A DNA stretch of 64,000 bases from Escherichia phage vB_EcoS_VAH1. Position numbers and translations under genes: made by a program. The stretch lies in sequence record MK373792.1; one strand, written 5' to 3'. Below, in pieces: positions 123 to 41,580 of the stretch (position 1 is the first letter of the stretch; every line of letters begins with the position of its first letter). A model generated the notes under the pieces. It searched no databases, was not told the DNA's origin, and saw nothing but the letters and a program-made list of their open reading frames with translations.

Positions 123-1070
123 TTATTTATTACGCATATCCATAATCATTTGGCCATCATAGCCAGTGCCAACCACAGTCTGCGGTACACCACCTTGGTA
201 TTTCTGAGCACGAATCATTTCAACTTCCAGTTGCTTCCAGCGAATCATCTCAGGAGTAATGGTACGTTGCAACGCGGCGTTAGCTTCAGCTTCTTTCTTA
301 GCTGCGTACAGTTTGGCATCTGCGTCACGCTCATTGGCAATAGCTTGGTTATTACGAGCTTCGCGATCTGCTTCTGCTTGTTTAACCTTCTGCTGTGCTT
401 CTTGTTCAACACGAGCCAGTTCAGCTTTCGCAGCATTAACTTGCTCTTCACGAACTTTGGTATTCTGTACCTGTTCCATGATTACCGGTGGCAAAGTAAT
501 ATCCTGAAGGAATACCTGCTTAACTGTATAACCATATGGGCGTGCATACTCTTCAACTTCCTGTTGAATTGCAGTTTGCAATTGAGCCTGAATTTTAGCA
601 TCAAACAAATCTTGTGCTTTAGGTACAGACTTACCAAACTCACGAATAGTAGACAGTAATTTTTCAGTTACATATTTATCTAGTGCTTGATCCTGGGTGC
701 CTGCGTTAATACGGTTAATCGGTGCCTTAGAACCATCAAATTGTAACATAACAGTCAGGTCAACAGTGGATTTAAACTTATCTTGGCTAGGAACCTGAAG
801 TTTATCTAATTTTACAGCAATATCTTTTGTACTAAAAGTATCGAAAGATGCAAATGGGTTTACAAGATGGAAACCAGGTAATACTGGGTTAGGATCTACT
901 TTACCTAGAAATGTTTGGGTTTTAACCGTACCATCAGAAACAATAGTATATGAATTAAAAGCTAGGATTAAACCTGCTAAACCAACTACAGCACCAATAC
1001 CCCAACGTTTAATAGTGCGAATTACTTTTTGCTCAGAAGTCAGTTCTTTCATATTTTTAGTATTAAACAT
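123..1070 (-). CDS. SPFH/band-7 (prohibitin/HflC-like) membrane protein
   Basis: 315 aa; N-terminal hydrophobic segment (IGAVVGLAGLILAF), band-7 core, then a Gln/Ala/Glu-rich coiled-coil tail; AAGGAA ribosome-binding site 5 nt before the ATG. Confidence 0.75.
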   Translation of the reverse strand: MFNTKNMKELTSEQKVIRTIKRWGIGAVVGLAGLILAFNSYTIVSDGTVKTQTFLGKVDPNPVLPGFHLVNPFASFDTFSTKDIAVKLDKLQVPSQDKFKSTVDLTVMLQFDGSKAPINRINAGTQDQALDKYVTEKLLSTIREFGKSVPKAQDLFDAKIQAQLQTAIQQEVEEYARPYGYTVKQVFLQDITLPPVIMEQVQNTKVREEQVNAAKAELARVEQEAQQKVKQAEADREARNNQAIANERDADAKLYAAKKEAEANAALQRTITPEMIRWKQLEVEMIRAQKYQGGVPQTVVGTGYDGQMIMDMRNK

Positions 1071-1104
1071 ATATTTCCTTTGTTTTAGTTACAGTTAATA
1101 AAAT

Positions 1105-1179
1105 TGGCCGAGGTGACAGGATTCGAACCTGCATAAAGGAATTTAGAAGACTCCTGCCTCTCCCTTAGACTACACCCCG
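1105..1179 (-). tRNA. tRNA-Arg (anticodon UCU), CCA encoded
   Basis: Hand-folded cloverleaf: acceptor CGGGGTG/CACCTCG, D-arm with GG, anticodon stem GGAGT/ATTCC with loop CUUCUAA, T-arm GCAGG-TTCGAAT-CCTGT, discriminator G plus CCA. Confidence 0.8.
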
Positions 1180-1682
1180 TTTAAGTATTTTTAAGAACTC
1201 TCGTAAAAACTCTTAAAAATACAGACGATACCGGGAGAGTCATAAGTCTCACTCATTAAGTATTTCAAGACAAAATACAGTAACGTCTATTATTTTCCAG
1301 TTTAAGTCAGGGTGACTTAGTGGTTATGTCCTGCGGTATATTGAGGACTCGGTTAGGCTTTGGGGTCATGACTTCCCGCCTTTTGCTGCTACTCAACAGG
1401 AGTTATCGCGAATTACCTGTGCTATTGTGCACCATTAGTGACATCTCTCATGTCAGCATTTCCCACTTTGTGGATAGCTTGAAAAACTACTCCGATATGG
1501 AGAAAGAACTTCACTATCCTAGAATACCTTCTAAAGTTCTTCTTTAGCCTGGACATAGTTAAATCGTAATAAAACTATTCAGCAGACTGGTTGGTTAGTC
1601 TGGAACCAACTACCGCGTGGTTTAGGCAGTGCGCAACTAACCTCGGAAGCTTTTACGTTAAAAGCATCAGTTATCCAGTTCT

Positions 1683-1754
1683 TACCGACCGTAGGATTCG
1701 AACCTACATCTTCCACCAGTTACGGCTTGATAATACCAATTATACTAGGACGGC
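1683..1754 (-). tRNA. tRNA-like element (possible pseudo-tRNA); anticodon arm not foldable by eye
   Basis: Canonical T-arm GTAGG-TTCGAAT-CCTAC, 6 of 7 acceptor pairs (GCCGTCC/GGTCGGT), D-loop AATTGGTA, but no 5-bp anticodon stem found. Confidence 0.35.
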
Positions 1755-1992
1755 AGTGTTACTACATAAGTGATTTCCACACCCCACTATCAGTAAATTA
1801 GAGAAGAGTTTAGGGGAGAGGTTTCAGACGCCTCATTTTACACGTTCTAGCCACTAACCGGGATTGCCGCCCCCTGTGTACTAGTTTTACAACTAACCCA
1901 CCGACTCTATTCAACGAATCTTAGTGCTCGACGCATCTTACATTAAGACAAGTTCAGCGTAATCGGCTCGCTGTTCCCTAATTTATGAATAT

Positions 1993-2021
1993 ATTATACA
2001 GAATTTAAAGGCATTTAGCAA
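1993..2021 (-). promoter_or_regulatory. T5-type early sigma70 promoter (TTGCTA-N17-TATAAT) reading leftward into the tRNA region
   Basis: On the - strand: TTGCTAAATGCCTTTAAATTCTGTATAAT with AT-rich flanks; one of a repeated promoter family. Confidence 0.6.
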
Positions 2022-2029
2022 ATAAATTT

Positions 2030-2473
2030 TTAATTAAATTCGCCAGCAATCTGAGCAGCAGTACCACCATCATAACGCCCAGGAAATTCTTCCTTAATCG
2101 CTTTCATCAGCATACCTTTTGTAATTCCAGGGTTTAGCTTAACTAATTCTGCAAAGTATTTACGAATCTCAGTATCAGATAACTGAGGAGGCAGATACTC
2201 CTGCAACCACTTATTTAGAATGTATTCATACTGAGCGGACTGCAAGCTATAACTATCAAGATCTTGACCATGAAGTTTAGCTTTCATCTGGTTAATGCTT
2301 TTTAGTTGAGCTTTGAGATAAGACACAAATTGTTCAGAAGTGATGAAATCTTTATCAATACGCTGAAGATCCCCGATTATGGTCTGATAGCTTTTAGCGA
2401 CTTCTTTATCAGAACCATTAAACTTAGAATCCTGCAAAGCTCTACGCAAAACATCTAAAATATTCTCTTCCAT
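2030..2473 (-). CDS. Hypothetical early protein
   Basis: 147-aa ORF; its ATG overlaps the stop of the upstream small ORF (TAATG), suggesting translational coupling. Confidence 0.6.
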   Translation of the reverse strand: MEENILDVLRRALQDSKFNGSDKEVAKSYQTIIGDLQRIDKDFITSEQFVSYLKAQLKSINQMKAKLHGQDLDSYSLQSAQYEYILNKWLQEYLPPQLSDTEIRKYFAELVKLNPGITKGMLMKAIKEEFPGRYDGGTAAQIAGEFN

Positions 2474-3166: not shown

Positions 3167-3484
3167 TTACTCCTGCCAATCATATTCAACACGATTGGGA
3201 TTTTCTTTATACCCTAAGTCAAGCAAATCATTACGCATATTTTGCTTAGCTACTGGGTTCGAGGTTACTAGTACCACTTTCTTTGGTCTCTGCCCAAATT
3301 CTAAGAGTAAGCGAAGAATTTGATAACCTTCCATACCATCTACAGCCAAGTCATTATCCATATAAACGAAATGGCCTGTGGTATCAGTTTTATTCAGAAA
3401 CTCTACAGCGGCTTCTGGGGTTCGAATGATAATGTCCATTCCGTGAAGATTACGCACATCATCAATCAAAATATGAAAAGTCAT
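3167..3484 (-). CDS. Stand-alone receiver (CheY-like REC)-like small protein
   Basis: 105 aa; the pattern ILIDD...YMDNDL...VVLVTSNP resembles the acidic pocket, phospho-acceptor Asp and conserved Thr of receiver domains; weak, by eye. Confidence 0.45.
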   Translation of the reverse strand: MTFHILIDDVRNLHGMDIIIRTPEAAVEFLNKTDTTGHFVYMDNDLAVDGMEGYQILRLLLEFGQRPKKVVLVTSNPVAKQNMRNDLLDLGYKENPNRVEYDWQE

Positions 3485-3514
3485 AATAGCCTCGTTTCAT
3501 CAATTTAAAAATAT

Positions 3515-3543
3515 ATTATACAGATAACTTAGTAAATTAGCAA
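3515..3543 (-). promoter_or_regulatory. T5-type early promoter (TTGCTA-N17-TATAAT)
   Basis: Consensus hexamers with 17-nt spacer on the - strand, about 30 nt upstream of the start at 3484. Confidence 0.6.
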
Positions 3544-3926
3544 ATACATTTTTAAATTGTGAAACTAGTAAACCGATAAACAGCCTAGAGGCGCCACAGG
3601 CCATATCTTACGAGCCATGTACCTTTGATCTAGGGTTTGAATCATCAACGAATACTTTGCATCTTTTAGCTTTAGAAGTTTAGAAGTTTGAGTTCTTTAA
3701 ACTTTTCAGCTTTCATACTTAAATGTTGATCTTTGAAGTTGTGTCGGTAATATCAACGACGCTTTGTTTTTACGTGTCAGATTAAGTGTCTGATGTAATA
3801 AACATAATCTCCAATAGATTATACTTTATAGTATGGTCAGCGGTCTTATTTAACCTCGTATTTCAACCGCTGCTGCGAGGTAAGATGCTTGGGCTTTCGT
3901 CTACCGATTTACTAGCTTTTAAATTA

Positions 3927-4801: not shown

Positions 4802-4841
4802 ATTTGTTTTCCTTTTATTGTTTTCTCAAATTTATGAATAT

Positions 4842-4870
4842 ATTATACAGAATTTTGGGGCCGGAAGCAA
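4842..4870 (-). promoter_or_regulatory. T5-type early promoter (TTGCTT-N17-TATAAT)
   Basis: Consensus -35/-10 on the - strand between the genes at 4801 and 4872. Confidence 0.6.
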
Positions 4871-4871
4871 A

Positions 4872-5573
4872 TCAAATTTTCATTTTTTCGATCATAGCTG
4901 CAACACAATAGCTTTCAACTAAGGCATCAAATGCAGGATCATGCTTAACCGGATAGATCCCATAACGAATAGTGTCCATCTTCTCCATTTTAGCTATTGC
5001 CCAGCTAATACCTTCGGTCTCTAGAGCCTTATAACTGTATCCAGCTTGCATCCAGAGATTACGAAGAGATCGAACATTACCCAAATTCCAGAATTTCCAC
5101 GGAACTACCTCTTCATTGGTTCCAGCATGGAACGTGTTTGCAGAGTAGATAGTCATATCAAACTCTGGACCATTGCCATAATACAAAGCATTTTCGCCTA
5201 GAGCCAACTCCATAATATTTTGAGCCATAGAGAAGGCAGCATAGTTAGAGCCGAGCTTATTAGTACAGTGATGTTTACCGTCTTGAAAAGCAATCAGCTT
5301 TGGATTGCATTCCCTCATAGCTTCCATAATATGTAGAGCTGATGGACTATTTTTAGCTTGATCCATCCAGAATGCTAGAGTAGATGCCGTAACTTTAGCT
5401 CCAGAATTAAGCTGATCTTGTACATCCAAAATAACAAACACTAGACCAGGATCTTTATCAATTCCGTGCATAGCCACAAAAGCGAAAGAAGGCATTACGA
5501 TATGAGTAGTACCACAATCTCCTGGAGTTCCTAAAGATTCAATATCTAGCATACCAAATGGTTTTACTTTCAT
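4872..5573 (-). CDS. DEDDh-type 3'-5' exonuclease-like protein
   Basis: 233 aa; Exo I-like DIESLG near the N-terminus and Exo III-like HDPAFDA near the C-terminus; AAAGGA ribosome-binding site. Confidence 0.5.
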   Translation of the reverse strand: MKVKPFGMLDIESLGTPGDCGTTHIVMPSFAFVAMHGIDKDPGLVFVILDVQDQLNSGAKVTASTLAFWMDQAKNSPSALHIMEAMRECNPKLIAFQDGKHHCTNKLGSNYAAFSMAQNIMELALGENALYYGNGPEFDMTIYSANTFHAGTNEEVVPWKFWNLGNVRSLRNLWMQAGYSYKALETEGISWAIAKMEKMDTIRYGIYPVKHDPAFDALVESYCVAAMIEKMKI

Positions 5574-14731: not shown

Positions 14732-16544
14732 ATTAATTGAGAATTGCAAAGGTCTGCTCACTCTAACTGCGGATAAGGACTTACAGCATAATAATGCTAA
14801 TAAGCCTAGTGAGATGTTCCATACTCAAAGAGACTTATTAGCTGGGGAAATTAACAAGTATTTAGTATCGCAAGAATTACCTAAACACCTGTTAGACGCA
14901 CATAATCTAGGTAAAATACACATTCATGACATGGACTACAGAGCACAAGGGTACACCAACTGTTGCTTAGTAGATCTAGGCGGTATGCTGAAAAATGGCA
15001 CTAAAATTGGTAACGCAAATATTGAAACTCCTAAATCCATAACTACTGCATGCGCGATTACTGCTCAGATTATTGCTCAAGTATCGGGTGCTCAGTATGG
15101 TGGCACTTCTATTGATCGTATCGATGAGGTTTTAGCCCCCTATGTCAGAAAGTCTTATGATAAGCACCTGGGTCGTGGTCTACGTTGGCTCAAGGATGAA
15201 AGGAAAGCTGCTGTATATGCTACTGAACTTACTGAAAAAGAGTGTTATGATGCATTCCAAGCCCTAGAGTATGAAACTAATTCATTATTTAACTCTAACG
15301 GACAGACTCCTTTTGTTACGCTTGGCTTTGGGCTAGGACAGGGGTGGGAGGAAAGGATGATTCAGAAAGCCATCCTCCAAAACCGTATTAAAGGTTTAGG
15401 TGCTGCTGAGTCAACCCCTATCTTCCCTAAACTAGTATTCTCAGTTAAAGAAGGGTTAAATAAAAATCCAGGCGATCCTAACTATGATATAAAACAGCTA
15501 GCACTTGAGTGTTCTGCTACCCGTATGTACCCGGACTATTTAAGTTACGAGAAAGTTGTAGCTGTTACTGGTGATTTTAAAGCACCTATGGGTTGTCGTA
15601 GTTTTTTATCCGCTATTCCTTCTGGGGAAACTGCCGGCCGTAATAATCTGGGTGTAGTGTCTATTAATCTACCTATGGTTGCTGCTGAGGCAGATGGGGT
15701 TTTTGAAGATTTCTGGGATATTCTGGACAAATATGTGGATGAGGCTTTTGAAGCTCATGATTTTTTCTTGGATAGACTTAAGAAAGTGAAGGCTAAACAA
15801 GCCCCTATTCTTTATATGCACGGTGGTTTTGGTGTGCGTTTAGATGGGGAAGAGTATGTATGGCCAATTTTTGAGGGTAGATCTTCTGTATCTCTTGGGT
15901 ATATTGGGGTCTATGAGATGTGCCAAATAATGTTTAGTTTACCGCAGACTCATAGGGACTGTATTGAATTTACAGAGGAAGTTCTTACTCACCTAAAAAA
16001 TCGTTGCGAAGTTAAAGCTAATGAGACTAATCTTGGGTTTAGCTTGTATGCTACTCCTAGTGAGTCTCTATGTAATCGCTTTAATAAACTACTGGAACGT
16101 AGGTTCCCTGAGTATTCTTGGCTAACAGATAAAGGCTATCTCACTAATAGTCATCATTTGGACGTAAGGGAGAAGGTAGCTCCGGATACTAAATTTGAGT
16201 ATGAAGCTCATTTCACCAAAATAGCTAATGGTGGTAATATATCGTTTGTGGAACTACCACAAATGAAAAAGTTCCATAAAGCTCTTGAATACGTAGTAGA
16301 TAAGGGATTAGAATGTAGCCATTATATTGGTGTTAATATACCAATTGATGAGTGCTTCAACTGTGGGTATATGGGTGAATCTGTTGCCTCTGAACGTGGG
16401 TTTGTATGTCCAAGTTGTGGGTCTGAAGAAATAGAGGTTACACGTAGGGTTTGCGGGTACCTGGGATCCCCGGGCAGTAGGCCTTTCAATTCTGGGAAAC
16501 AAAAAGAAGTGCTTGGTAGAGTAAAACACTTAAATCTTAAGTAA
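14718..16544 (+). CDS. nrdD: Anaerobic ribonucleoside-triphosphate reductase
   Basis: 608 aa; C-terminal glycyl-radical motif TRRVCGYLG and a Cys-rich zinc ribbon (CFNCGY...CPSCGS). Confidence 0.9.
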   Translation: MTENELIENCKGLLTLTADKDLQHNNANKPSEMFHTQRDLLAGEINKYLVSQELPKHLLDAHNLGKIHIHDMDYRAQGYTNCCLVDLGGMLKNGTKIGNANIETPKSITTACAITAQIIAQVSGAQYGGTSIDRIDEVLAPYVRKSYDKHLGRGLRWLKDERKAAVYATELTEKECYDAFQALEYETNSLFNSNGQTPFVTLGFGLGQGWEERMIQKAILQNRIKGLGAAESTPIFPKLVFSVKEGLNKNPGDPNYDIKQLALECSATRMYPDYLSYEKVVAVTGDFKAPMGCRSFLSAIPSGETAGRNNLGVVSINLPMVAAEADGVFEDFWDILDKYVDEAFEAHDFFLDRLKKVKAKQAPILYMHGGFGVRLDGEEYVWPIFEGRSSVSLGYIGVYEMCQIMFSLPQTHRDCIEFTEEVLTHLKNRCEVKANETNLGFSLYATPSESLCNRFNKLLERRFPEYSWLTDKGYLTNSHHLDVREKVAPDTKFEYEAHFTKIANGGNISFVELPQMKKFHKALEYVVDKGLECSHYIGVNIPIDECFNCGYMGESVASERGFVCPSCGSEEIEVTRRVCGYLGSPGSRPFNSGKQKEVLGRVKHLNLK

Positions 16545-29184: not shown

Positions 29185-29201
29185 TCTGGTAAATTAAACC
29201 T

Positions 29202-29235
29202 AAGGGGAGGGGGCTATGCTCCTTCCCCTTTTTGC
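29202..29235 (+). terminator. Rho-independent terminator
   Basis: Stem AAGGGGAGGG/CCTTCCCCTT (one mismatch) followed by a U-run; the track ORF's ATG at 29216 lies in the loop. Confidence 0.6.
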
Positions 29236-30739
29236 ATTTAGAAGGCACGAAAGCGTGCAAAGGAGAATGACCTTGTTTAACGTGCAAGCTGTAGTGTTGA
29301 AGATGCTTCTAGCTTCCGAACAGAAGCAAATAGCATTGGAAACATTCTCAAAACTGCATAAAGATCATTTTAATGACGCTTTCTCCTCAATTTACCAAGC
29401 CGTCCAGAATTATTATAAAAAATATAACACAATGCCGTCCATTGACGCACTTATGCTTGAAGCTAATAGGAACGCCCGCCTTTCTCAAGCTCTAGTCGTC
29501 TTAGCTAACACTCAAATTCCAGAAGTGAGCATGGAACAGGCACTTGAAGTCCTAGAGGCCGAATATACACAGGATTTATTCCTGAAGCTTCTAGAAACAG
29601 ACGTGCTTCAAGATTTAACAATGCTGGATCAGGGAGAAATTCTCAACCGAGTTGCCTCCCTTCACTTAAAATTAGAAGAGAAAGTAACGAATACTGGAAA
29701 AGTATTCAACGCAGATAACATGCGTATTTTCCAGAGAGAAGAAGATACCAAACTGAACTTAATCGCTCTTGGTATTTGTAATGAGTTCGACGCTCAAATC
29801 GGTTTAGCTCGCACAGAAACGTTACTGCTTGGTGGTTGGCGTGGTACTGGTAAATCCATTATCTGTTCAAACATACAGGTTCAGCAATATTTGAATGGGG
29901 ATATTGCTCCATACTTCTCAATTGAGATGAAAGAACATGAAGTATTTAGACGTAATCTAGCCATGTTAGCTGGTGTATCAGCATTAGCAATGCGTAATAA
30001 TACTCTAGAAGGTGCAGCTCTGTTGAGATTAGCCAGAACTAGAGCTAGAATGTTTAATGGTGGTGAAGAGCTTTTCGACAACTTCGTTAAACAGTATACA
30101 ATGGCTAAGATGAGTGATTTCTACGATATGGAGAGTAAGCTAATAGAGGGATATGAACTACATACTCCTATGATTATCGTTTATGACCCTGAACTGTCCA
30201 TTACAACAGTTGACGTAGAATTAAATAAATTAGTTGCTAGATATGGTGATAAAGTTACAGTAGCTCTACTTGACTATATTAACCAAACCCGACTTCCAGA
30301 CTCTAAAACCATTGATATGTATGACTGGAAAGAACAGATGGTTGTTAGCTCGTCTTTCAAATCTATCTGCCAGAAACATAACGTGGCTGGTGTAGCTCCT
30401 TACCAGATCGATCAAGATGGTAGAACACGTATGTCAAAGGGTATTCTTGATTCCGCAGATATGGCTGCTAATCTTAATGCTGCAAAAGCTGATAATGGTC
30501 AAGGTGCTATTATGTTTGACTTCGTTAAGACTCGTTCTTCTGATAGCGTGAAGTTTATGCCTAAAATGAACTGGGAAACCTTGCGGATGGATAACACTAC
30601 CAACCTAGCAATGGAAGATATATCTCAAATGGAAGCTGAGTTCATTATCCCTATTGAGAAGGATAAGCCGGCTCAACCTAAACGTGCTAAGAAAGACAAA
30701 ACTGAAAATTCAACAGGTGAACAGGCCAGCGATATATGA
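29216..30739 (+). CDS. DnaB/RecA-like P-loop ATPase, putative replicative helicase
   Basis: 507-aa frame; Walker A GGWRGTGKS; true start uncertain because 29216 is inside the terminator hairpin (alternatives near 29267-29273). Confidence 0.55.
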   Translation: MLLPLFAFRRHESVQRRMTLFNVQAVVLKMLLASEQKQIALETFSKLHKDHFNDAFSSIYQAVQNYYKKYNTMPSIDALMLEANRNARLSQALVVLANTQIPEVSMEQALEVLEAEYTQDLFLKLLETDVLQDLTMLDQGEILNRVASLHLKLEEKVTNTGKVFNADNMRIFQREEDTKLNLIALGICNEFDAQIGLARTETLLLGGWRGTGKSIICSNIQVQQYLNGDIAPYFSIEMKEHEVFRRNLAMLAGVSALAMRNNTLEGAALLRLARTRARMFNGGEELFDNFVKQYTMAKMSDFYDMESKLIEGYELHTPMIIVYDPELSITTVDVELNKLVARYGDKVTVALLDYINQTRLPDSKTIDMYDWKEQMVVSSSFKSICQKHNVAGVAPYQIDQDGRTRMSKGILDSADMAANLNAAKADNGQGAIMFDFVKTRSSDSVKFMPKMNWETLRMDNTTNLAMEDISQMEAEFIIPIEKDKPAQPKRAKKDKTENSTGEQASDI

Positions 30740-31269
30740 TAACACAGGAAAGGCTAAAAGAGTTATTTGATTACTCCCCAGGAACTGGGGAGTTTACTAG
30801 AAAAGTATCTAGAGGTAATCAGAAAGCTGGTAGTATAGCTGGTTCTTTAAGAAAAGATGATTATATATGTATATGGGTAGATGGAAAGCCTTACTATGCG
30901 CATCAACTAGCTTTTCTCTATATGGAAGGTTATTTACCTGAAGAAGTAGACCATATAAACCGTATACGAAGTGATAATCGTTGGGTTAACCTTAAAGATT
31001 CTTCTCACCAAGAGAATAGCAGGAATAAAGCAGCTAAAAGTAAATCAGGGTATATAGGAGTTAGTTGGAATAAACAAAGGCAAAAATGGCAAGTTCAACT
31101 AAGAGATACCAATAAAAAGAAAATATTCGGTGGATATTTTGAGTACCAGAATTTAGAATCAGCCGTAGATAAGATTAATAAGCTACGATTACAATTTCAT
31201 GGGGAAAATGCTATTCAAGAAATATTCGACCCGTCTAATTATCCTGCATTAGAGGAGATAAATTCATGA
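30736..31269 (+). CDS. HNH homing endonuclease (HNH_3 + AP2)
   Basis: 177 aa; N-terminus MITQERLKEL shared with the ORF at 38324; HQLAFLYMEGYLPEEVDHINR. Confidence 0.8.
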   Translation: MITQERLKELFDYSPGTGEFTRKVSRGNQKAGSIAGSLRKDDYICIWVDGKPYYAHQLAFLYMEGYLPEEVDHINRIRSDNRWVNLKDSSHQENSRNKAAKSKSGYIGVSWNKQRQKWQVQLRDTNKKKIFGGYFEYQNLESAVDKINKLRLQFHGENAIQEIFDPSNYPALEEINS

Positions 31270-32156
31270 GTAGAATAACAGAATTACTTGATCTTAAGGG
31301 AATTGAGTATAAAGATACTGGTGGAGATATTTTAATCTGTTGCTTAAATCCAGATCATGATGATAAACACCCAAGTTTGCGTATTGATCCTGAAACCGGG
31401 ATTATGCACTGCTTGAGTTGCGGGTTTGGCAAAGGTATACCTAGTATTTATCATTATTTTAATGAGACTCAATATAGACAATCTCCAAGACTATCCCAAG
31501 TACGTAAAAAGATTTCAGAGATTAGAAATGGATCTACGAATCTTGCAATCCCAGAATCTGCCTGCCTTTTCGAAGGTGATTTCCGAGGTATCAGTTCTAA
31601 GACCTTGAAGAAATATTTTGCTTTCCAACATCAAGAGAACTGGGAAGGCAGAATTGTATTCCCAATCACAGATGCTGTTGGACGCAATATCCTATTTTTG
31701 GGTCGTTCTATAAACAGTTCTGCCCCTCCTAAATACTTAGTAAAACCAAAACAAGTTTCACCACCGATTTTCCCTGTACGATATAATACTCCAGTTCTTG
31801 TTCTAGTTGAAGGTATCTTTGATATGCTGAACCTAGAGGATAATGGTATAGACTATGCTTCTTGCTGCTTTGGTACACATCAGTTTACCTCGGATAACAT
31901 TGCAGATAAGTTCAGTCCGTATATTATTGCTGGTGTTAAAGTTGTTGTTATCTTACTAGATAATGATGCTTCTGGTAATAAAGCCGCACAAGCACTGGCT
32001 AAGCTAATTCGTACAAAAACGCGTTTAACACCTGTAGTTGCTAACTTTCTTCTGCCTGAAGGTAAAGACCCAGGTGACTTAAATAAAGAAGAAATTGATA
32101 TGTTAGCAAAACGTATTGAAATTTTAGTTGCTGAATCGCTTAAAGATTTGGTATAA
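31266..32156 (+). CDS. DNA primase (DnaG-like, CHC2 zinc finger + Toprim)
   Basis: 296 aa; zinc finger CLNPDHDDKHPSLRI...CLSCGFGKG; Toprim-like EG..D region. Confidence 0.8.
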   Translation: MSRITELLDLKGIEYKDTGGDILICCLNPDHDDKHPSLRIDPETGIMHCLSCGFGKGIPSIYHYFNETQYRQSPRLSQVRKKISEIRNGSTNLAIPESACLFEGDFRGISSKTLKKYFAFQHQENWEGRIVFPITDAVGRNILFLGRSINSSAPPKYLVKPKQVSPPIFPVRYNTPVLVLVEGIFDMLNLEDNGIDYASCCFGTHQFTSDNIADKFSPYIIAGVKVVVILLDNDASGNKAAQALAKLIRTKTRLTPVVANFLLPEGKDPGDLNKEEIDMLAKRIEILVAESLKDLV

Positions 32157-32182
32157 TAGTCCTAAATAACTGAGGAGCTACT

Positions 32183-32512
32183 ATGGAATATGTATATATT
32201 TATGCGGATGTTCCAGTGTATGATAGTATAACACACAAAGAGGTTAAACTAGAGCGGTTTACAACACTGGAGTCCCTTAATAAACGAAAGAATTTCCATT
32301 TATTTGGTGATCCTAAATTACCTGCATCTTATATTTACTTTAAAGTAAAAGATACAGGTCAAGAGGTATACCTAACATATGATTGGGCTGTTGTAGAAAA
32401 TACTGAGCAATCTATGAAAGCGCTAGATGCTTTTCTGCGTATAGATGAAGAATTTCGGGTACTAGAAAAGCAGCGCAATGAAATGCGTAAATTACTACAT
32501 ACCTATAAATAG
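32183..32512 (+). CDS. Hypothetical protein
   Basis: 109-aa ORF with GAGGAG ribosome-binding site. Confidence 0.55.
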   Translation: MEYVYIYADVPVYDSITHKEVKLERFTTLESLNKRKNFHLFGDPKLPASYIYFKVKDTGQEVYLTYDWAVVENTEQSMKALDAFLRIDEEFRVLEKQRNEMRKLLHTYK

Positions 32513-32515
32513 TAT

Positions 32516-32544
32516 TTGCTATTATCCCAATATTTTGATATAAT
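32516..32544 (+). promoter_or_regulatory. Sigma70 promoter (TTGCTA-N17-TATAAT) upstream of the DNA polymerase gene
   Basis: Consensus hexamers about 60 nt upstream of the pol start. Confidence 0.6.
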
Positions 32545-32605
32545 ATATTGGTAAGTTAGAGAAGAAACACTGAAGTTATACTTACTTACCAAGAGGAGAT
32601 TAAAT

Positions 32606-35173
32606 TTGAAAATCGCAGTAGTTGATAAAGCTCTAAATAACACTCGTTATGATAAACATTTCCAGCTATACGGCGAGGAAGTTGATGTATTCCATATGTG
32701 TAACGAGAAGTTGTCCGGTCGTTTGCTCAAAAAGCATATTACTATAGGGACTCCGGAAAACCCATTTGACCCGAATGATTATGATTTTGTTATACTGGTA
32801 GGTGCCGAACCTTTCCTGTACTTTGCAGGTAAGAAAGGTATTGGTGATTATACTGGTAAACGTGTAGAGTATAATGGATATGCTAACTGGATTGCGAGTA
32901 TCAGCCCAGCCCAGTTACACTTTAAACCTGAAATGAAACCAGTTTTTGATGCAACAGTAGAGAATATCCACGATATTATCAATGGTCGTGAGAAGATTGC
33001 AAAAGCTGGTGATTACCGTCCTATTACTGACCCTGATGAGGCAGAAGAATATATCAAGATGGTGTATAATATGGTTATCGGACCTGTCGCATTCGACTCC
33101 GAAACCTCAGCACTATACTGTCGAGATGGTTATCTACTTGGTGTTTCTATATCTCACCAAGAGTATCAGGGTGTATATATCGATTCTGATTGCCTCACAG
33201 AGGTTGCAGTATATTACCTCCAGAAAATCCTGGATAGTGAAAACCACACTATTGTTTTTCACAACTTGAAGTTTGATATGCACTTTTATAAGTACCATCT
33301 GGGACTTACTTTTGATAAAGCACATAAAGAACGCAGGCTCCATGATACCATGTTGCAGCACTATGTTCTAGATGAACGTCGTGGTACTCATGGCTTGAAA
33401 TCTCTAGCAATGAAGTATACCGATATGGGTGACTATGACTTTGAACTAGATAAGTTCAAAGATGATTACTGCAAAGCACATAAAATCAAGAAAGAAGATT
33501 TCACCTATGATTTAATTCCGTTTGATATTATGTGGCCTTACGCTGCGAAAGATACAGATGCCACCATACGTTTGCACAACTTCTTCTTACCAAAGATTGA
33601 GAAGAATGAAAAACTTTGCAGTCTGTATTACGATGTTTTGATGCCTGGTTGCGTATTCTTGCAACGTGTTGAAGATCGTGGTGTACCTATTTCTATCGAT
33701 CGTTTAAAAGAAGCTCAGTATCAGTTAACCCATAATCTGAATAAAGCCCGTGAGAAACTGTACACTTATCCAGAAGTTAAACAGCTAGAACAAGATCAGA
33801 ATGAAGCGTTTAACCCGAACTCTGTTAAGCAGCTGCGCGTTCTTCTGTTTGATTACGTTGGCTTAACTCCAACAGGTAAACTGACGGATACTGGAGCAGA
33901 TTCTACAGATGCAGAAGCTCTGAATGAGCTGGCTACGCAGCATCCAATTGCTAAAACTCTACTAGAGATTCGTAAGCTGACTAAGCTGATCTCTACTTAT
34001 GTTGAGAAGATTCTACTGAGTATTGATGCAGATGGTTGCATTCGTACTGGTTTCCATGAACATATGACTACTTCTGGTCGTCTGAGTTCTTCTGGTAAAC
34101 TGAACCTGCAACAGCTACCTCGTGATGAATCTATTATCAAGGGTTGTGTAGTTGCACCACCTGGATACCGTGTAATCGCGTGGGACTTAACAACTGCGGA
34201 AGTTTACTATGCTGCTGTTCTATCTGGGGATAGAAATATGCAACAGGTATTTATCAACATGAGAAATGAACCCGATAAATACCCAGACTTCCACTCTAAC
34301 ATCGCCCACATGGTATTTAAATTGCAATGTGAACCTCGTGATGTTAAGAAGCTGTTCCCAGCTCTACGTCAGGCAGCTAAGGCAATTACCTTTGGTATTT
34401 TGTATGGTTCTGGCCCGGCTAAAGTAGCACATTCTGTTAACGAAGCATTGCTCGAACAAGCAGCCAAAACTGGGGAACCGTTTGTTGAATGTACTGTTGC
34501 AGATGCTAAAGAGTACATTGAGACTTACTTTGGTCAATTCCCACAGCTTAAGCGTTGGATTGATAAGTGCCACGATCAGATCAAGAATCATGGATTTATC
34601 TATAGTCACTTTGGTCGTAAACGTCGTCTGCATAATATCCATTCCGAAGACCGTGGTGTTCAGGGTGAAGAAATTCGTTCTGGATTTAACGCAATCATTC
34701 AGTCTGCTTCTTCTGATAGTCTCCTTTTAGGTGCTGTAGATGCAGATAATGAGATCATTTCTCTTGGTTTAGAACAAGAGATGAAGATTGTTATGTTGGT
34801 TCATGACTCCGTAGTTGCTATTGTTCGTGAGGATTTGATCGACCAATACAATGAAATCCTGATTCGTAATATTCAGAAAGACCGTGGTATCAGTATTCCT
34901 GGCTGTCCGATTGGTATTGATTCAGATTCTGAAGCCGGGGGTTCTCGTGACTATTCTTGTGGTAAGATGAAGAAACAGCACCCATCAATTGCTTGTATTG
35001 ATGATGATGAATATACTCGTTACGTTAAAGAAATGCTACTTGATGCAGATTTCGAGTATAAGAAACTAGCTGCGATGGATAAAGAGCATCCAGACCACAG
35101 CAAGTACAAGGATGATAAGTTTATTGCTGTATGTAAAGATCTGGATAACGTGAAAAGGATTCTCGGTGCTTAA
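32606..35173 (+). CDS. DNA polymerase, family A (T5-type, 855 aa), TTG start
   Basis: 855 aa from a TTG with AAGAGGAG ribosome-binding site; N-terminal 3'-5' exonuclease and C-terminal Pol I-like polymerase domains. Confidence 0.9.
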   Translation: MKIAVVDKALNNTRYDKHFQLYGEEVDVFHMCNEKLSGRLLKKHITIGTPENPFDPNDYDFVILVGAEPFLYFAGKKGIGDYTGKRVEYNGYANWIASISPAQLHFKPEMKPVFDATVENIHDIINGREKIAKAGDYRPITDPDEAEEYIKMVYNMVIGPVAFDSETSALYCRDGYLLGVSISHQEYQGVYIDSDCLTEVAVYYLQKILDSENHTIVFHNLKFDMHFYKYHLGLTFDKAHKERRLHDTMLQHYVLDERRGTHGLKSLAMKYTDMGDYDFELDKFKDDYCKAHKIKKEDFTYDLIPFDIMWPYAAKDTDATIRLHNFFLPKIEKNEKLCSLYYDVLMPGCVFLQRVEDRGVPISIDRLKEAQYQLTHNLNKAREKLYTYPEVKQLEQDQNEAFNPNSVKQLRVLLFDYVGLTPTGKLTDTGADSTDAEALNELATQHPIAKTLLEIRKLTKLISTYVEKILLSIDADGCIRTGFHEHMTTSGRLSSSGKLNLQQLPRDESIIKGCVVAPPGYRVIAWDLTTAEVYYAAVLSGDRNMQQVFINMRNEPDKYPDFHSNIAHMVFKLQCEPRDVKKLFPALRQAAKAITFGILYGSGPAKVAHSVNEALLEQAAKTGEPFVECTVADAKEYIETYFGQFPQLKRWIDKCHDQIKNHGFIYSHFGRKRRLHNIHSEDRGVQGEEIRSGFNAIIQSASSDSLLLGAVDADNEIISLGLEQEMKIVMLVHDSVVAIVREDLIDQYNEILIRNIQKDRGISIPGCPIGIDSDSEAGGSRDYSCGKMKKQHPSIACIDDDEYTRYVKEMLLDADFEYKKLAAMDKEHPDHSKYKDDKFIAVCKDLDNVKRILGA

Positions 35174-35181
35174 TTTCAAAT

Positions 35182-35208
35182 TGCCCGTATATGCTTTACG
35201 GGCATTTG
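35182..35208 (+). terminator. Terminator-like hairpin after the polymerase gene
   Basis: Stem TGCCCGTA/TACGGGCA followed by a weak TTTGTAT run. Confidence 0.4.
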
Positions 35209-35375
35209 TATCAATTGAGCAAGAAGGTGATTATTCCGTAATTACAACAAGATATAATAAATATGTGCTAGATAACAGGAAGTTGCCTGGTACTTTTTCT
35301 CAACGTAGGCTTATTCTATTTGAGAAACGGAAAGAATTACCATACAAGCTCTATCCTATTAGAGGTAGAATATCA

Positions 35376-35663
35376 ATGTTGTCTCAATTAGTTGGGTCAA
35401 AGCGTAGCCAATTTATAGATTCTGATGGAAATCTTATTAACTGGAAGAAAACTACGTTCTATGATGTTGTCACCTCTAAAGTTTTGCATTCAGCTAGAAT
35501 TTATAACGGAAAATACCAATGCTATGTAGCTAAAGTTCCATATCCATTTGTATTATCCTATGTTCCAGCTTATATAAGCTATATTCTGGTAAATAATAGC
35601 CCTGTTATTTATCAAGTCCATCAAGAGGAGCCTGAAATTCCTAGACTTAGAATAAAATTATGA
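35376..35663 (+). CDS. Hypothetical protein (start uncertain)
   Basis: Track ORF 35166..35663 begins over the terminator; the internal ATG at about 35376 has a GAGGT ribosome-binding site. Confidence 0.3.
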   Translation: MLSQLVGSKRSQFIDSDGNLINWKKTTFYDVVTSKVLHSARIYNGKYQCYVAKVPYPFVLSYVPAYISYILVNNSPVIYQVHQEEPEIPRLRIKL

Positions 35664-35812
35664 AGGTTGTTATATCTAATAAAGCCTATTTCAAGCCCGA
35701 TGATGAACTTTGGGATTATTGTAGTAAGCAAACCACTTATCACATAGAGACAATGACTAGTAAATACCCTATTATGTATAAGAATAGTGGTGTTGTTGCC
35801 CAAAGAGATTAA
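35660..35812 (+). CDS. DExH-box helicase, N-terminal fragment (about 50 aa; absent from the ORF track)
   Basis: ATG overlaps the upstream stop (ATGA); MKVVISNKAYFKPDDELWDYCSKQTTYHIETMTSKYPIMYKNSGVVAQRD*; the frame shifts at a GCCC run into the next fragment. Confidence 0.4.
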   Translation: MKVVISNKAYFKPDDELWDYCSKQTTYHIETMTSKYPIMYKNSGVVAQRD

Positions 35813-36239
35813 GTGGATTCCTATTACGCGTCTGGACTTATTAGATGCTAAAGGAATAAAATACGAATTAGTCGATAAACGCACATTAGCTCCAGTAGAT
35901 ATACCAAAACCTGAGTTCAAGCTGCGTGAAGAAGACCAGCTCCCAATATATAAAGAGTGTGATGATACCTGTATTATTAATGGTAAGCCTGGATTTGGTA
36001 AAACTATCCTAGCCCTTGCACTTGCGTATAAATTTGGCCAGAAAACTTTGGTAATCTGTACAAATACATCCATACGTGAAATGTGGGCGGCAGAAGTTCG
36101 TAAATGGTTTGGGTTTGAACCAGGCATCATAGGTTCTGGGAAGTACAATATTGATCCACCAATTGTAGTCAGCAATATTCAAACAGTAAATAAACATGCG
36201 AATAATCTTTCTAAAGTATTCGGTACTGTTTATAGTTGA
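35787..36239 (+). CDS. SF2 DExH-box helicase (D10-like), fragment with motif I
   Basis: No ribosome-binding site at the track start; Walker A GKPGFGKT; ends ...KVFGTVYS* at a GTTT run. Confidence 0.7.
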   Translation: MVLLPKEIKWIPITRLDLLDAKGIKYELVDKRTLAPVDIPKPEFKLREEDQLPIYKECDDTCIINGKPGFGKTILALALAYKFGQKTLVICTNTSIREMWAAEVRKWFGFEPGIIGSGKYNIDPPIVVSNIQTVNKHANNLSKVFGTVYS

Positions 36240-37014
36240 TGAAGTTCACCATTGTGTGGCTACAACTTTCACTAATTTCCTAGAAATATCATGTGCTCGC
36301 TATAAAATTGGACTATCCGGTACACTAAAACGAAAAGATGGTTTACAAGTTATGTTCAAAGATTTCTTTGGATATAAGATATTTAGCCCGCCGGTTAATA
36401 ATACTGTTGCACCTACAATCCATAGGTACTCCGTGCCTGTTGAGCTATCAGGAAACCAAAACGTGCCGTGGGCATTACGTGCTAACGATGTGTATAATCA
36501 TCCTGAATATCGAGAGACTATTATAAACCTAGCACATTTATATGTGAATATGGGGCATAAAGTACTCATTGTAAGTGATAGAACAGAGTTAATCCAAACA
36601 GTACTAGAAGCTCTTACGCAGCGGGGTGTTACAACATATGAAATTATAGGGGCAACCCACTTAGATGACCGATTAAAAATTCAGGAAGATATAGCAAAAG
36701 GTGGGCCTTGTGTACTTGCAGCAGCTCAAAGTATCTTCTCTGAAGGTATTTCTCTTAATGAGCTATCTTGTTTAATAATGGGAAGCCTCATTAATAATGA
36801 ATCTCTCATTGAACAGCTTGCAGGCCGTGTTCAACGTATTGTCGATGGTAAACTCGACCCTATTGTTGTAGATCTAATTATGAAAGGTGGCACTGGACTA
36901 AGACAGGCTTCTGGACGTATGGCAGTATATCGTAACAACGGGTGGAAAACTATTACTATGACCCCGGAGAAAGCAGTTCAATTAGCTAAAATTGCATTTG
37001 GCAACAGCTCATAA
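36196..37014 (+). CDS. SF2 DExH-box helicase (D10-like), fragment with motifs II-VI
   Basis: Begins ...FIVDEVHH (motif II), then SGT (motif III) and QLAGRVQR (motif VI); frame is +1 relative to the previous fragment. Confidence 0.7.
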   Translation: MRIIFLKYSVLFIVDEVHHCVATTFTNFLEISCARYKIGLSGTLKRKDGLQVMFKDFFGYKIFSPPVNNTVAPTIHRYSVPVELSGNQNVPWALRANDVYNHPEYRETIINLAHLYVNMGHKVLIVSDRTELIQTVLEALTQRGVTTYEIIGATHLDDRLKIQEDIAKGGPCVLAAAQSIFSEGISLNELSCLIMGSLINNESLIEQLAGRVQRIVDGKLDPIVVDLIMKGGTGLRQASGRMAVYRNNGWKTITMTPEKAVQLAKIAFGNSS

Positions 37015-37026
37015 ATGATGTATAAT
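36998..37026 (+). promoter_or_regulatory. Putative promoter (TTGGCA-N17-TATAAT) within the helicase 3' end
   Basis: Followed by CATAAATTTGAGAGAGAGAAAG, which resembles the PN25 downstream region. Confidence 0.45.
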
Positions 37027-37099
37027 ATATACATAAATTTGAGAGAGAGAAAGTTTCGGATTGATAAGAAAGTCCGAAGCAGAAAAATAAAAATTTTAG

Positions 37100-37129
37100 T
37101 TGCTAAATTCTCTCGAAATCTAGTATAAT
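37100..37129 (+). promoter_or_regulatory. Sigma70 promoter (TTGCTA-N18-TATAAT)
   Basis: Followed by CATAAATTCGAGGAG; upstream of the genes at 37237 and 37514. Confidence 0.55.
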
Positions 37130-37236
37130 ATATACATAAATTCGAGGAGAAAACAAAAATTAAATTCTTCGATTATGAAAAGCTATACTTACTAGCTAGA
37201 GGAAATTCCGACTTAATTATTAAGTTATTCAAAAGA

Positions 37237-37521
37237 ATGCTTACAGAGCCTGATGCTCACCAATTATTGGTCGGTTCCTCATTCATTTTGAATGAATCAA
37301 CAATAGTTGATAATCAAAATAAATTGTCTAATAGACAACTGGCAGAATATCTAGGAATTTTAAGTCTACGAAATTATGCCGAATACAAGTTTACAAACGA
37401 TCCTAGTTTGGACATACAATATGTTCCAGTATGGATACCTCGTTTAGTAATCGACACTAACCCACTAATCGCAATTAACAAATCGAAATTAATCTTTAAA
37501 GAGGAAATAAAATATGGCTAA
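37237..37521 (+). CDS. Hypothetical protein
   Basis: 94-aa ORF with a weak ribosome-binding site; overlaps the next gene's start. Confidence 0.35.
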   Translation: MLTEPDAHQLLVGSSFILNESTIVDNQNKLSNRQLAEYLGILSLRNYAEYKFTNDPSLDIQYVPVWIPRLVIDTNPLIAINKSKLIFKEEIKYG

Positions 37522-38287: not shown

Positions 38288-38294
38288 TAAATAG

Positions 38295-38318
38295 AGGGGC
38301 TTCGGCCCCTTTCTTTTT
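38295..38318 (+). terminator. Rho-independent terminator
   Basis: Stem AGGGGC/GCCCCT with TTCG loop, followed by TTCTTTTT. Confidence 0.7.
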
Positions 38319-38323
38319 AACCA

Positions 38324-39761: not shown

Positions 39762-41580
39762 GACACTAAAATTTAGTAACGTTATGTCTTACGGTAAGGA
39801 CATCGTAATTCATTTCGATAAGAATCCAGTTACTCAACTAATTGGTGGCAATGGGCTAGGGAAATCCACCATCGCTACTGTTATCGAGGAATTGTTTTAT
39901 AACAAGAACTCACGTGGTATTAAGAAGGATGCTCTATTCTCTTGGAATGCCCCTAAGAAAGAATATGATATGCACGCTTATTTCTCGAAAGATGATGATG
40001 AGTATGAGCTGCATAAAGTAGTTAAATCAACTGCTAAAGTAACGTTGATTAAGAATGGGGAAGATATTAGTGGACATACGGCAACCCAAACATATAAAAT
40101 GATTGAAGAGATTATGGGCGGTGACTTTCAAACGTTCACCAAACTGATTTATCAATCAGTGGGTTCCAACCTAGATTTTCTAAAAGCAACAGATGCAACA
40201 CGTAAGGCTTTTCTTGTCAACTTGTTTAATCAAGAACAATACAAAGAAATGTCGGAAACTATTAAGGCTGACCGTAAAGAAATAGCAAATACCTTAAATA
40301 ATTTGCAGGGCCAAATGGCTGTAATTACGAAAATCCTTAATGGAAAAAATAATCTAGGAACTTTGCAGGAACCTATAGAAGTACCGGAGTTTGATGAAGA
40401 GCCATTAGCACAAGAACTTACTGAATCGAAAATTAAGGCGGCATTAGCCAAGTCTCAAGAGGCTAATATTACTAAGTTGCGTAATTTGGACAAAGCTGTA
40501 CAAGTTGCCGAACAATCTTTCGAACCTTTCAAAAATTTGCCCGCGCCCACCGACCAAAGTGAAGAGATCTCGAGTGTTACGCGTGACCTAACGATTGTGA
40601 CCTCACGTGCGAGCGAAGTTAAGAAACGTTATCAGAAGTTCAAGCAAGAGGCTTCAAATACTGAATGCCCTACTTGTGGCACTCATCTGGATACAACTGC
40701 TGCTCAAAAAGCAATGGATATGGCTAGAATAGAATATGATCCTCTGTTCAAAGAGAAGCAATCTCTTGAAGCTAAGCTAGAACAGTTGAAGAAAGAACAA
40801 CTTGAGTACGTTGCGTATACTAGAGCAAAGGATGCTCTTGATAAAGCGGTGGTAGCTAGAGACGAGTTCAAAAATTCAATGAGTGATGCTTCTTTTGAAG
40901 AACTCAATGTGCAAATCCTACAGGTGCAAATACGACAATTAGAACAGGCAATCGCTGATGGACGTTCTAAGGTTGCAATTGCCAAAGAGCATAATGCAAA
41001 TGTCGAATTAGCCAATGCAAAATATAAAGCAAAGCTAGAACAGATTGAGAAAGCTGAAGCAGAAATGTCTGAGATTACTTCCAAACTGAATGGAGTATCT
41101 GAAGCTGTTGCTGATCTCGATATTCTGATTGCTGCATTGAAAAATCTGGTGGGATATAAGCTAGAACATAGTGTGAAAGTATTTGAAGAACTAATTAATA
41201 AATACCTTTCCATTATGACTGGTGGTAAATTCGCACTTGGATTCGAACTTGATGAAACGAAGTTACAAGTAGTAATCTTCAATGATGGAAACCGTACCAG
41301 TATGGAGAACTGCTCTACTGGTCAGCAAAGTCGAATTAATCTAGCAACCCTGTTAGCTATTCGAATGCTGTTAACATCTATTAGTAAAGTTAATATTAAT
41401 CTTCTATTCCTTGATGAAGTAATTAGCTTTATTGATACGAAAGGACTTGATACTCTCGTTGAATTATTAAATGAGGAAGAAAGTCTAAATTCTATCATTG
41501 TTTCTCATGGGCATACGCATCCATTAGCTCATAAGATTACTGTCAAAAAAGATGCAGAAGGATTTTCCTACTTAGAATAA
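39742..41580 (+). CDS. SbcC/Rad50-like ATPase (D13-like)
   Basis: Track ORF 39640..41580; likely start is the ATG at 39742 overlapping the SbcD stop; Walker A GGNGLGKST, long coiled coil, C-terminal LLFLDEV. Confidence 0.75.
   Translation: MSKITIKTLKFSNVMSYGKDIVIHFDKNPVTQLIGGNGLGKSTIATVIEELFYNKNSRGIKKDALFSWNAPKKEYDMHAYFSKDDDEYELHKVVKSTAKVTLIKNGEDISGHTATQTYKMIEEIMGGDFQTFTKLIYQSVGSNLDFLKATDATRKAFLVNLFNQEQYKEMSETIKADRKEIANTLNNLQGQMAVITKILNGKNNLGTLQEPIEVPEFDEEPLAQELTESKIKAALAKSQEANITKLRNLDKAVQVAEQSFEPFKNLPAPTDQSEEISSVTRDLTIVTSRASEVKKRYQKFKQEASNTECPTCGTHLDTTAAQKAMDMARIEYDPLFKEKQSLEAKLEQLKKEQLEYVAYTRAKDALDKAVVARDEFKNSMSDASFEELNVQILQVQIRQLEQAIADGRSKVAIAKEHNANVELANAKYKAKLEQIEKAEAEMSEITSKLNGVSEAVADLDILIAALKNLVGYKLEHSVKVFEELINKYLSIMTGGKFALGFELDETKLQVVIFNDGNRTSMENCSTGQQSRINLATLLAIRMLLTSISKVNINLLFLDEVISFIDTKGLDTLVELLNEEESLNSIIVSHGHTHPLAHKITVKKDAEGFSYLE

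Follow-up and report, generated by a model that had tools for sequence, protein, structure and literature searches.

A predicted multi-domain RNA enclosing a tRNA-shaped module upstream of tRNA-Arg(UCU) in a T5-like phage

The 64,000 nucleotides (nt) of Escherichia phage vB_EcoS_VAH1 analysed here (MK373792.1; the window) derive from a T5-like phage (Tequintavirus), in which the genes at the locus considered are read on the minus strand. Positions 1080-2030 probably form a single early minus-strand unit made up of a promoter, a structured noncoding RNA (ncRNA) of ~805 nt known as RNAX, tRNA-Arg(UCU), an SPFH gene, and a terminator, with a tRNA-shaped module lying inside RNAX. Sequence comparison predicts that RNAX consists of serial domains, each closed on its own. 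These comprise a leader with closing helix P0, the clamp domain, a domain of nested hairpins, a multibranch domain, a small hairpin, and a 17-base-pair (bp) terminal hairpin. What seems to be new is the structural model, with its P0 and P1 clamps, domain D4, strictly conserved palindromic loop, and terminal hairpin; the features noted at the outset are already annotated in T5. An initial annotation of the segment had suggested that the tRNA-like element might be either a pseudo-tRNA or a tRNA-like structure with another role. It looks like the latter and is not a decoding tRNA.

The RNAX interval and its conservation

In the T5 reference (NC_005859) the interval from promoter P16-17 to tRNA-Arg is a misc_RNA, rnaX (T5s08, 40848..41566, 719 nt), with the wording 'RNAX: stable RNA with unknown functions'. 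The window shares this promoter with T5, as well as the flanking genes, including the downstream tRNA-Arg and SPFH gene. Over the part in common the two RNAs are 92-99% identical (92% over 517 nt, 99% over 238-286 nt). T5 differs in lacking ~165 nt of the leader, with P0 kept, in a duplicated small hairpin, and in a perfect acceptor stem of the tRNA-shaped module. Location between P16-17 and tRNA-Arg(UCU), together with sequence similarity, establishes the window interval as orthologous to T5 rnaX. Its 5′ end would be set by the promoter and its 3′ end by the RNase P site of tRNA-Arg.

Window positions 1000-2100 are 99% identical with Tequintavirus genomes, e.g., Salmonella phage oldekolle and phage NBEco001, and are matched by 443 phage records, nearly all of them T5-like. 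RNAX was found across the examined Demerecviridae, in phages of Escherichia, Salmonella, Klebsiella, Yersinia, and Pantoea, at a length of ~0.8-1.3 kb. Motif scans of IMG/VR, metagenomes, and 185,579 bacterial species genomes detected the clamp domain only in T5-like phages; the IMG/VR and metagenome scans added almost exclusively T5-like phages that were already represented. Three matches to bacterial genomes and a single match to an unrelated viral contig of 97 kb were dismissed as chance.

Relative to Klebsiella Sugarlandvirus, RNAX contains islands with 82-92% identity (2035-1894, 1842-1795, 1790-1659, 1545-1473, and 1222-1184), compared with 68-70% for neighbouring coding DNA. Relative to Epseptimavirus, the RNAX interval overall is 72-75% identical and the neighbouring genes 85-88%. 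The RNAX region therefore evolves fast, with strongly constrained islands in it. At least six helices show numerous compensatory changes. The many G.U pairs would be C.A mismatches on the opposite strand, so the structure belongs to the minus-strand transcript. It is conceivable that the element is a neutral relic, i.e., a decaying tRNA pseudogene in a spacer left by tRNA-gene turnover and homing-endonuclease traffic. The low overall identity with Epseptimavirus would fit such an origin, as would the mosaic nature of the region, which has lost or exchanged entire domains between lineages and has taken up HNH endonuclease genes. We consider this very improbable, since the islands exceed coding DNA in conservation across genera, the helices carry the compensatory changes just mentioned, and a strictly conserved loop sequence in D4 has been kept while its stem was rewritten. 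The three different tetraloop or stub solutions at the anticodon position of the module also argue for long persistence without decoding.

The segment had initially been described as poor in open reading frames (ORFs), and this was borne out: no ORF in 1080-2030 exceeds 75 amino acids (aa), and none is conserved. Two minus-strand ORFs of 44 and 34 aa were rejected because relatives do not conserve their starts (the 44-aa ORF has lost its ATG there) and because of stops and 1-2-nt indels. The 60-75-aa plus-strand ORF annotated in phage Baret has no conserved start and meets stops and 1-2-nt indels in relatives, and the ~57-aa coding sequence (CDS) annotated in Sugarland is likewise not conserved, with start loss, stops, and indels among relatives. 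Indels of 1-2 nt occur in the interval even among close relatives. Endonuclease ORFs do insert at two fixed junctions of the region and some annotators have called small CDSs in it, which could point to an element acting at the DNA level (homing-endonuclease targets, or a replication or nick signal) or encoding small proteins. We give this explanation hardly any credence: the strand-specific G.U pairs and the covariation preserve helices, not sequence, and the ORFs are not conserved, being broken by 1-2-nt indels or stop codons. The T5 nick consensus, moreover, maps elsewhere. The nick site proposed earlier for the tRNA-like element finds no support, as that consensus lies near 75-78, judged by position relative to the T5 annotation.

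The clamp domain and the tRNA-shaped module

Covariation around the module was examined in alignment A1, which comprised 24 distinct sequences from Tequintavirus, Epseptimavirus, Sugarlandvirus, Yersinia phiR2-01, Pantoea AAS21, and metagenomic contigs. Helix P1 joins the two flanks of the module over 12 bp (Table 1). All of its cells (100%) are paired in 24/24 distinct sequences, with both sides changed in 5 pairs and one side only in 2. RNAalifold predicts P1 unguided, slid controls of P1 pair at 30-45%, and the covariation of the clamp domain was reached by 0/500 shuffles. The columns of the single-stranded motif AGUGGGGUGU are mostly invariant or nearly so, and the motif is also kept in lineages without the tRNA-like module. 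Two possible partners of AGUGGGGUGU were considered, CACU of the linker and ACCCCA of D4, and neither pairing was supported in phiR2-01 or the Epseptimavirus variants.

With a covariance model of the clamp domain the window copy (1788-1638) reaches 174 bits, and the remaining full-length copies searched reach 132-172 bits. Neither the window nor the T5 tRNA region (T5 RNA1, RNA2, and RNA3 included) nor bacterial genomes yielded a further copy of the domain. In phages INF11 and BSP22A the score is 90-96 bits; the module is replaced by a ~47-nt insert without a T arm, and AGUGGGGUGU, P1, both linkers, and H2 are retained. The clamp platform is the conserved core, and the tRNA-shaped part a long-lived, replaceable, and non-decoding insert. 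An isolated pseudo-tRNA, as entertained in the initial annotation, is not what the alignment indicates, because the flanks are as conserved as the module itself and pair around it.

The module was described initially as having an intact T arm and D-loop and an unfoldable anticodon arm. This description largely stands, in that the T arm (GTAGG/TTCGAAT/CCTAC) and the D-loop GG are intact within an overall length of 72 nt and the anticodon arm is non-canonical. The Rfam tRNA model scores 35.5 bits at 1683-1754(-) against a gathering score of 29, a threshold that it passes solely through an alignment in which 18 nt of the anticodon arm are left out. No call was made by ARAGORN at 1683-1754 in the window. 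No canonical fold was therefore predicted for the element in the window, and odd ARAGORN calls were obtained on orthologues only (Ser-ACU in T5, SeC-UCA and Ser-CGA in other phages). ARAGORN reported no transfer-messenger RNA, and the Rfam clan gave the tRNA model only, so the element is not assigned to that class. Five acceptor pairs are kept in nearly all sequences, with covariation, and two covarying pairs were found in each of the T and D stems. The acceptor stem of the window has a G.U at pair 1-72 and a U.U at pair 5-68; pair 1-72 is non-standard in 14/24 and pair 5-68 in 20/24 distinct sequences. No CCA is encoded.

The anticodon arm is hypervariable between lineages. In the window, as in T5, it is a 4-bp stub shifted by one in register and capped by a UAAC tetraloop. 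At the same position Pantoea AAS21 has a GAGA tetraloop, some Epseptimaviruses have a 6-nt loop read as 'UCA', and Sugarland and Kenya-K44 have a long bulged hairpin consisting of 5 bp, a 3x3 internal loop, and 5 bp. An anticodon arm in canonical register (5-bp stem, 7-nt loop) was rejected in view of the JIPh_Kp127 and chee158 variants; covariation supports the shift by one, with 4-6-nt loops. As the anticodon arm is replaced by a short variable stub, the module cannot decode. It is thus best described as a predicted non-decoding structure that keeps the T arm, the D/T elbow, and most of an acceptor-like stem.

Retention of these parts could also mean that the element is kept only as an RNase P/RNase E signal, in the manner of a t-element, with RNAX as a precursor of a leader RNA, a tRNA-sized RNA, and a ~500-nt 3′ RNA. 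The conserved T arm, D-loop GG, and five acceptor pairs, all with covariation, are compatible with such processing punctuation, and so is a score above the Rfam tRNA gathering threshold. The T5 element has a perfect 7-bp acceptor stem, unlike that of the window with its U.U at 5-68, and is called a tRNA by ARAGORN. The other annotated stable RNAs of T5 lie in the tRNA gene region, where several abut tRNAs or one another. It has been shown that the tRNA-like module embedded in YrlA of M. smegmatis is cut by RNase P and receives CCA (PMC4201824). We nevertheless regard this explanation as unlikely. The covarying 12-bp clamp of the flanks would keep the halves joined even after cleavage, the element encodes no CCA, and most sequences leave pairs 1-72 and 5-68 unpaired. 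Lineages with a non-tRNA insert keep everything around the module, and T5 annotates a single RNA spanning the element. Clamped by its own flanks, without CCA, and with a weakened acceptor stem, the module is most likely retained in RNAX; it would remain there as a structural or recognition module and would probably not be released as a tRNA. Factors that bind tRNAs could recognise its L-shaped elbow, or the elbow could act as a docking surface.

Leader, 3′ domains, and possible stabilisation of RNAX

Further decayed tRNAs had been suspected in 1180-1680 and 1760-1985. These stretches gave no match at E<=10 and are instead predicted to form structured domains of one long RNA. Over 900-2200, neither Rfam at E<=10 nor a custom model built from the element produced a further tRNA-like match.

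In the leader domain D1, helix P0 pairs 1985-1974 with 1806-1795 and forms in every leader variant, with compensatory changes. An inner hairpin (CAGCG-loop-CGCUG) lies at 1973-1955, and its loop GCCGAUU (1967-1961) can pair with AGUCGGU (1906-1900) to give a putative pseudoknot, in which a C-G pair changes to U-A in Pantoea AAS21. In T5, Kenya-K44, and sequence L039 the ~165-nt leader interior has been lost and P0 is kept with a short loop as a hairpin. An HNH_3 homing-endonuclease gene stands in place of the leader domain in polluks, MSP1, SE19, and H8 (1545-2027 in L012 and L018, corresponding to window ~1980-1800); this replacement leaves the promoter and the clamp domain intact.

Domain D3 is 83.6% identical with Klebsiella Sugarlandvirus, against ~68-70% for neighbouring coding DNA, and its inner stem changes from AA/UU to GC/GC. 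It behaves as a cassette that is missing from some lineages. The middle of RNAX as a whole is a mosaic of hairpin cassettes differing by lineage, and the Klebsiella and some Epseptimavirus versions carry extra modules that are not conserved ORFs.

The multibranch domain D4 was analysed together with the adjacent small hairpin (1304-1318) in alignment A3, using RNAalifold and pair counts. The 39 pairs are 94.9% paired and 11 of them changed on both sides. None of 500 shuffles (0/500) reached the observed value, and slid controls pair at 34-49%. One hairpin of D4 carries the loop GAGUCAUGA, which has a palindromic core. The motif AGUCAUGACC, whose core lies in this loop, was recovered from the RNAX of all lineages examined, Sugarlandvirus, Pantoea AAS21, and Yersinia phiR2-01 among them, while the stem under this loop is wholly rewritten between lineages. 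Another conserved hairpin loop of D4, UAAUUCGCGAUAACU at 1397-1419(-), holds a second palindrome, UCGCGA, for which relatives have CGCG or CGCGCG. The GAUAACU heptamer known from the 3′ strand of the clamp recurs in this loop, which could engage in alternative or intermolecular pairing. In T5 the small RNAX hairpin AGUCACCUUGAC(U/A)UAAACUGG is duplicated in tandem (L003, ~15930-16110; L032, 5793-5900).

The terminal hairpin is ~90% conserved in all genera, with a U-A to C-G change and further compensatory changes in polluks. It is specific to the RNA-sense strand because it contains G.U pairs, and it can be assigned to the 3′ end of RNAX because it stays with RNAX where ORFs split RNAX from tRNA-Arg. 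None of the long perfect inverted repeats elsewhere in the window resembles it. We suggest that it is either a protector of the RNAX 3′ end or an RNase III-type site. In the former case, RNase P would cut at the 5′ end of tRNA-Arg to produce the 3′ end of RNAX, and the long hairpin would shield this end from 3′ exonucleases; such protection would explain the stability of RNAX. In several Epseptimaviruses and in Kenya-K44 an ORF of 166-169 aa without a Pfam match is located exactly between the terminal hairpin and tRNA-Arg (L006, 2508-3017; L046, 2147-2647), the junction corresponding to window 1180/1181. It is probably another mobile nuclease-type insertion.

Several points weigh against the view of 1080-2030 as one early unit with a single structured RNA. 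The shuffle controls overstate significance, because there are only ~10 truly distinct, mutually related lineages, all of one phage family. The leader taken alone gives no thermodynamic signal in minimum free energy (z = +0.49); for the 503-nt 3′ part of RNAX z is -2.65. The GUGG/CCAC closure of D4 is essentially invariant, with one G-C to G.U change, so that covariation cannot support the closing helix. The module is still above the Rfam tRNA threshold and has its five kept acceptor pairs, making RNase P cleavage and fragmentation of RNAX possible. The term 'stable RNA' is GenBank annotation wording, and the annotated ends may merely mark the interval from promoter to tRNA-Arg. Finally, the D1 interior in T5, the tRNA-like module in some Epseptimaviruses, and the D3 cassette are dispensable, and because parts can be missing in this way, 'one RNA, one function' may be too simple.

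Comparison with other RNAs and the surrounding locus

Phages carry GOLLD and ROOL close to tRNA islands, and in some cases the linker of GOLLD contains tRNAs (PMC12286853). RNAX is like them in being large (~0.6-0.8 kb), multi-domain, heavily structured, and phage-encoded beside a tRNA island. In GOLLD the 5′ part varies, the 3′ part is conserved, and the linker can hold tRNAs; RNAX likewise has variable and conserved halves and an embedded tRNA(-like) element. Homo-oligomeric assembly is a trait of GOLLD and ROOL for which the sole hint in RNAX is the strictly conserved palindromic loop sequence. Unlike GOLLD and ROOL, RNAX is confined to Demerecviridae in the collections searched.

Y RNAs are composed of a stem and a tRNA-like module (PMC4201824). 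YrlA and Yrn1 of D. radiodurans resemble RNAX in combining a stem of flanking strands with a tRNA-like module that has T and D arms; the anticodon arm of the Y RNA module is non-standard (a 6-nt loop in Yrn1), and the module is as a rule not aminoacylated (PMC4201824). YrlA is circularly permuted, its ends entering at the anticodon position and its acceptor forming a closed hairpin, whereas the ends of RNAX enter via the acceptor side. RNAX is also ~8 times longer than Y RNAs. With the tRNAs of the T5 cluster the module shares the T arm, the D-loop GG, the 72-nt size, and a position at the edge of the tRNA gene region; it differs in the register-shifted arm with a 4-nt loop, the missing CCA, and the clamping by equally conserved flanks.

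No Rfam match to GOLLD, ROOL, or YrlA was obtained in 900-2200 at E<=10, nor at gathering score in the whole window. Rfam contains no RNAX family and gave only tRNA matches in 900-2200 at E<=10. Judged by resemblance only, RNAX is analogous to, and not homologous with, GOLLD/ROOL and Y RNAs. A more far-reaching proposal would make RNAX the T5-family counterpart of GOLLD/ROOL, abundant and self-associating via the palindromic loop, with the clamped elbow serving as a docking site or decoy for tRNA-recognising factors. Candidates for binding the elbow would be host tRNA-targeting defence nucleases, RNase P, tRNA-modifying enzymes, and the phage YqeY-like protein. We find this proposal quite doubtful. 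If it were true, a tractable coliphage would give a route to the role of giant phage RNAs.

T5 is a classic model phage, and its RNAX can now be seen as a conserved multi-domain RNA with covariation support. Literature searches found no paper describing the structure or function of RNAX. It joins GOLLD, ROOL, and Y RNAs as an object of study and, unlike most of them, occurs in a phage-host pair in which deletions, pull-downs, and structure probing are routine. The viable T5 deletions T5Mos and T5-123 (tRNA region, T5 29191-38625) end before rnaX and tRNA-Arg (PMC11464382). According to its genome paper, BF23 encodes no tRNA-Arg (PMC10644984), and for that reason may lack the RNAX locus.

Annotation of the locus has been uneven. 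The tRNA-like element is labelled pseudo-tRNA in T5 record AY587007 and tRNA-OTHER, tRNA-Sec, tRNA-Ser, or tRNA-Pro(CGG) in other records. Hypothetical CDSs are placed over RNAX in GenBank, e.g., in relatives L001 (3368-3547, 3810-3914) and L004 (2803-2976, 3085-3405). These CDSs and the varied tRNA labels are likely mis-annotations: pipelines label the module inconsistently and call spurious small CDSs across RNAX.

The early promoter named in the initial annotation was recovered as TTGCTA-17-TATAAT at 2021-1993(-). It is the orthologue of T5 P16-17, overlaps the 3′ end of the YqeY-like gene, and would start transcription near 1986. The promoter block is conserved in all lineages compared, and no internal minus-strand terminator was found. 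A ~55-nt promoter block recurs with ~80% identity before several early genes (1980-2033, 2640-2724, 3502-3558, and 4824-4887) and fits an extended T5 early-promoter consensus. Downstream of RNAX, tRNA-Arg is predicted to be part of the same transcript. That this tRNA is well folded, as first reported, was confirmed by ARAGORN, which called exactly one tRNA in the 64-kb window (anticodon tct, 1105-1179(-)), and by an Rfam score of 49.3 bits. The codon rationale offered for it also holds. Across 45 long ORFs in the window, 26.7% of the Arg codons are AGA, which occurs at 12.1 per 1000, a usage that fits the usual rationale for a phage tRNA-Arg(UCU). This frequency is several-fold higher than in E. 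coli.

Table 1. Predicted and annotated features of RNAX and its surroundings in the window; gene order is taken from neighbouring annotations and our own Pfam scan
Feature	Position	Strand	Basis or remark
RNAX orthologue, ncRNA of ~805 nt, serial closed domains (predicted)	1180..1986	minus	T5 annotation and identity
Domain D1 (leader)	1795..1985	minus	closed by 12-bp helix P0
Near-invariant single-stranded motif AGUGGGGUGU, 5′ of P1	1779..1788	minus	alignment A1
Clamp helix P1, 5′ strand	1761..1774	minus	pairs with 1666-1679
tRNA-shaped module	1683..1754	minus	Rfam tRNA 35.5 bits; ARAGORN silent; covariation
Clamp helix P1, 3′ strand, contains invariant GAUAACU	1666..1679	minus	alignment A1, RNAalifold
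Hairpin H2, GCUUUUA-ACG-UAAAAGC, directly 3′ of clamp	1649..1665	minus	5 pairs, 100% paired, 2 compensatory
Domain D3, nested hairpins GAAGAACUU...AAGUUCUUU, inner CUAGAA/UUCUAG, CUCC/GGAG	1473..1545	minus	
Domain D4, multibranch, four inner helices	1320..1466	minus	closed by GUGG (1466-1463)/CCAC (1323-1320)
Strictly conserved motif AGUCAUGACC; palindromic core UCAUGA / GUCAUGAC in D4 hairpin loop	1364..1373	minus	
Small hairpin AAGUCA-CCC-UGACUU, then AAACUGGAA	1304..1318	minus	~89% conserved out to Yersinia phage
Terminal 17-bp A/U-rich hairpin, UACG tetraloop	1185..1222	minus	abuts tRNA-Arg
Sigma-70 early promoter TTGCTA-17-TATAAT	1993..2021	minus	promoter scan; T5 annotation
tRNA-Arg(UCU), CCA encoded	1105..1179	minus	ARAGORN; Rfam tRNA 49.3 bits; T5 tRNAR
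cREC_REC-domain protein ("cyclic-phosphate processing receiver")	3484-3167	minus	first in transcription order
SleB-type endolysin	3179-2712	minus	
DUF7616	2643-2473	minus	
YqeY-like protein (GatB-tail family)	2473-2030	minus	Pfam 25.4 bits, just below cut-off 27
SPFH/band-7 protein	1070-123	minus	downstream of tRNA-Arg
Hairpin terminator, bidirectional	99-68		downstream of SPFH gene

Two small RNA-related proteins, the YqeY-like (2030-2473(-)) and the cREC_REC protein (3167-3484(-)), are encoded just upstream of RNAX. They may be functionally connected with the tRNA-shaped module or with tRNA repair. In Sugarlandvirus the YqeY gene is missing at the position upstream of RNAX. At the other end of the unit, the terminator hairpin holds the T5 nick consensus (Pu-GCGC), with GCGC at ~75-78. 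This is the position of the T5-annotated 'major DNA single-chain interruption', 44 nt beyond the gene end.

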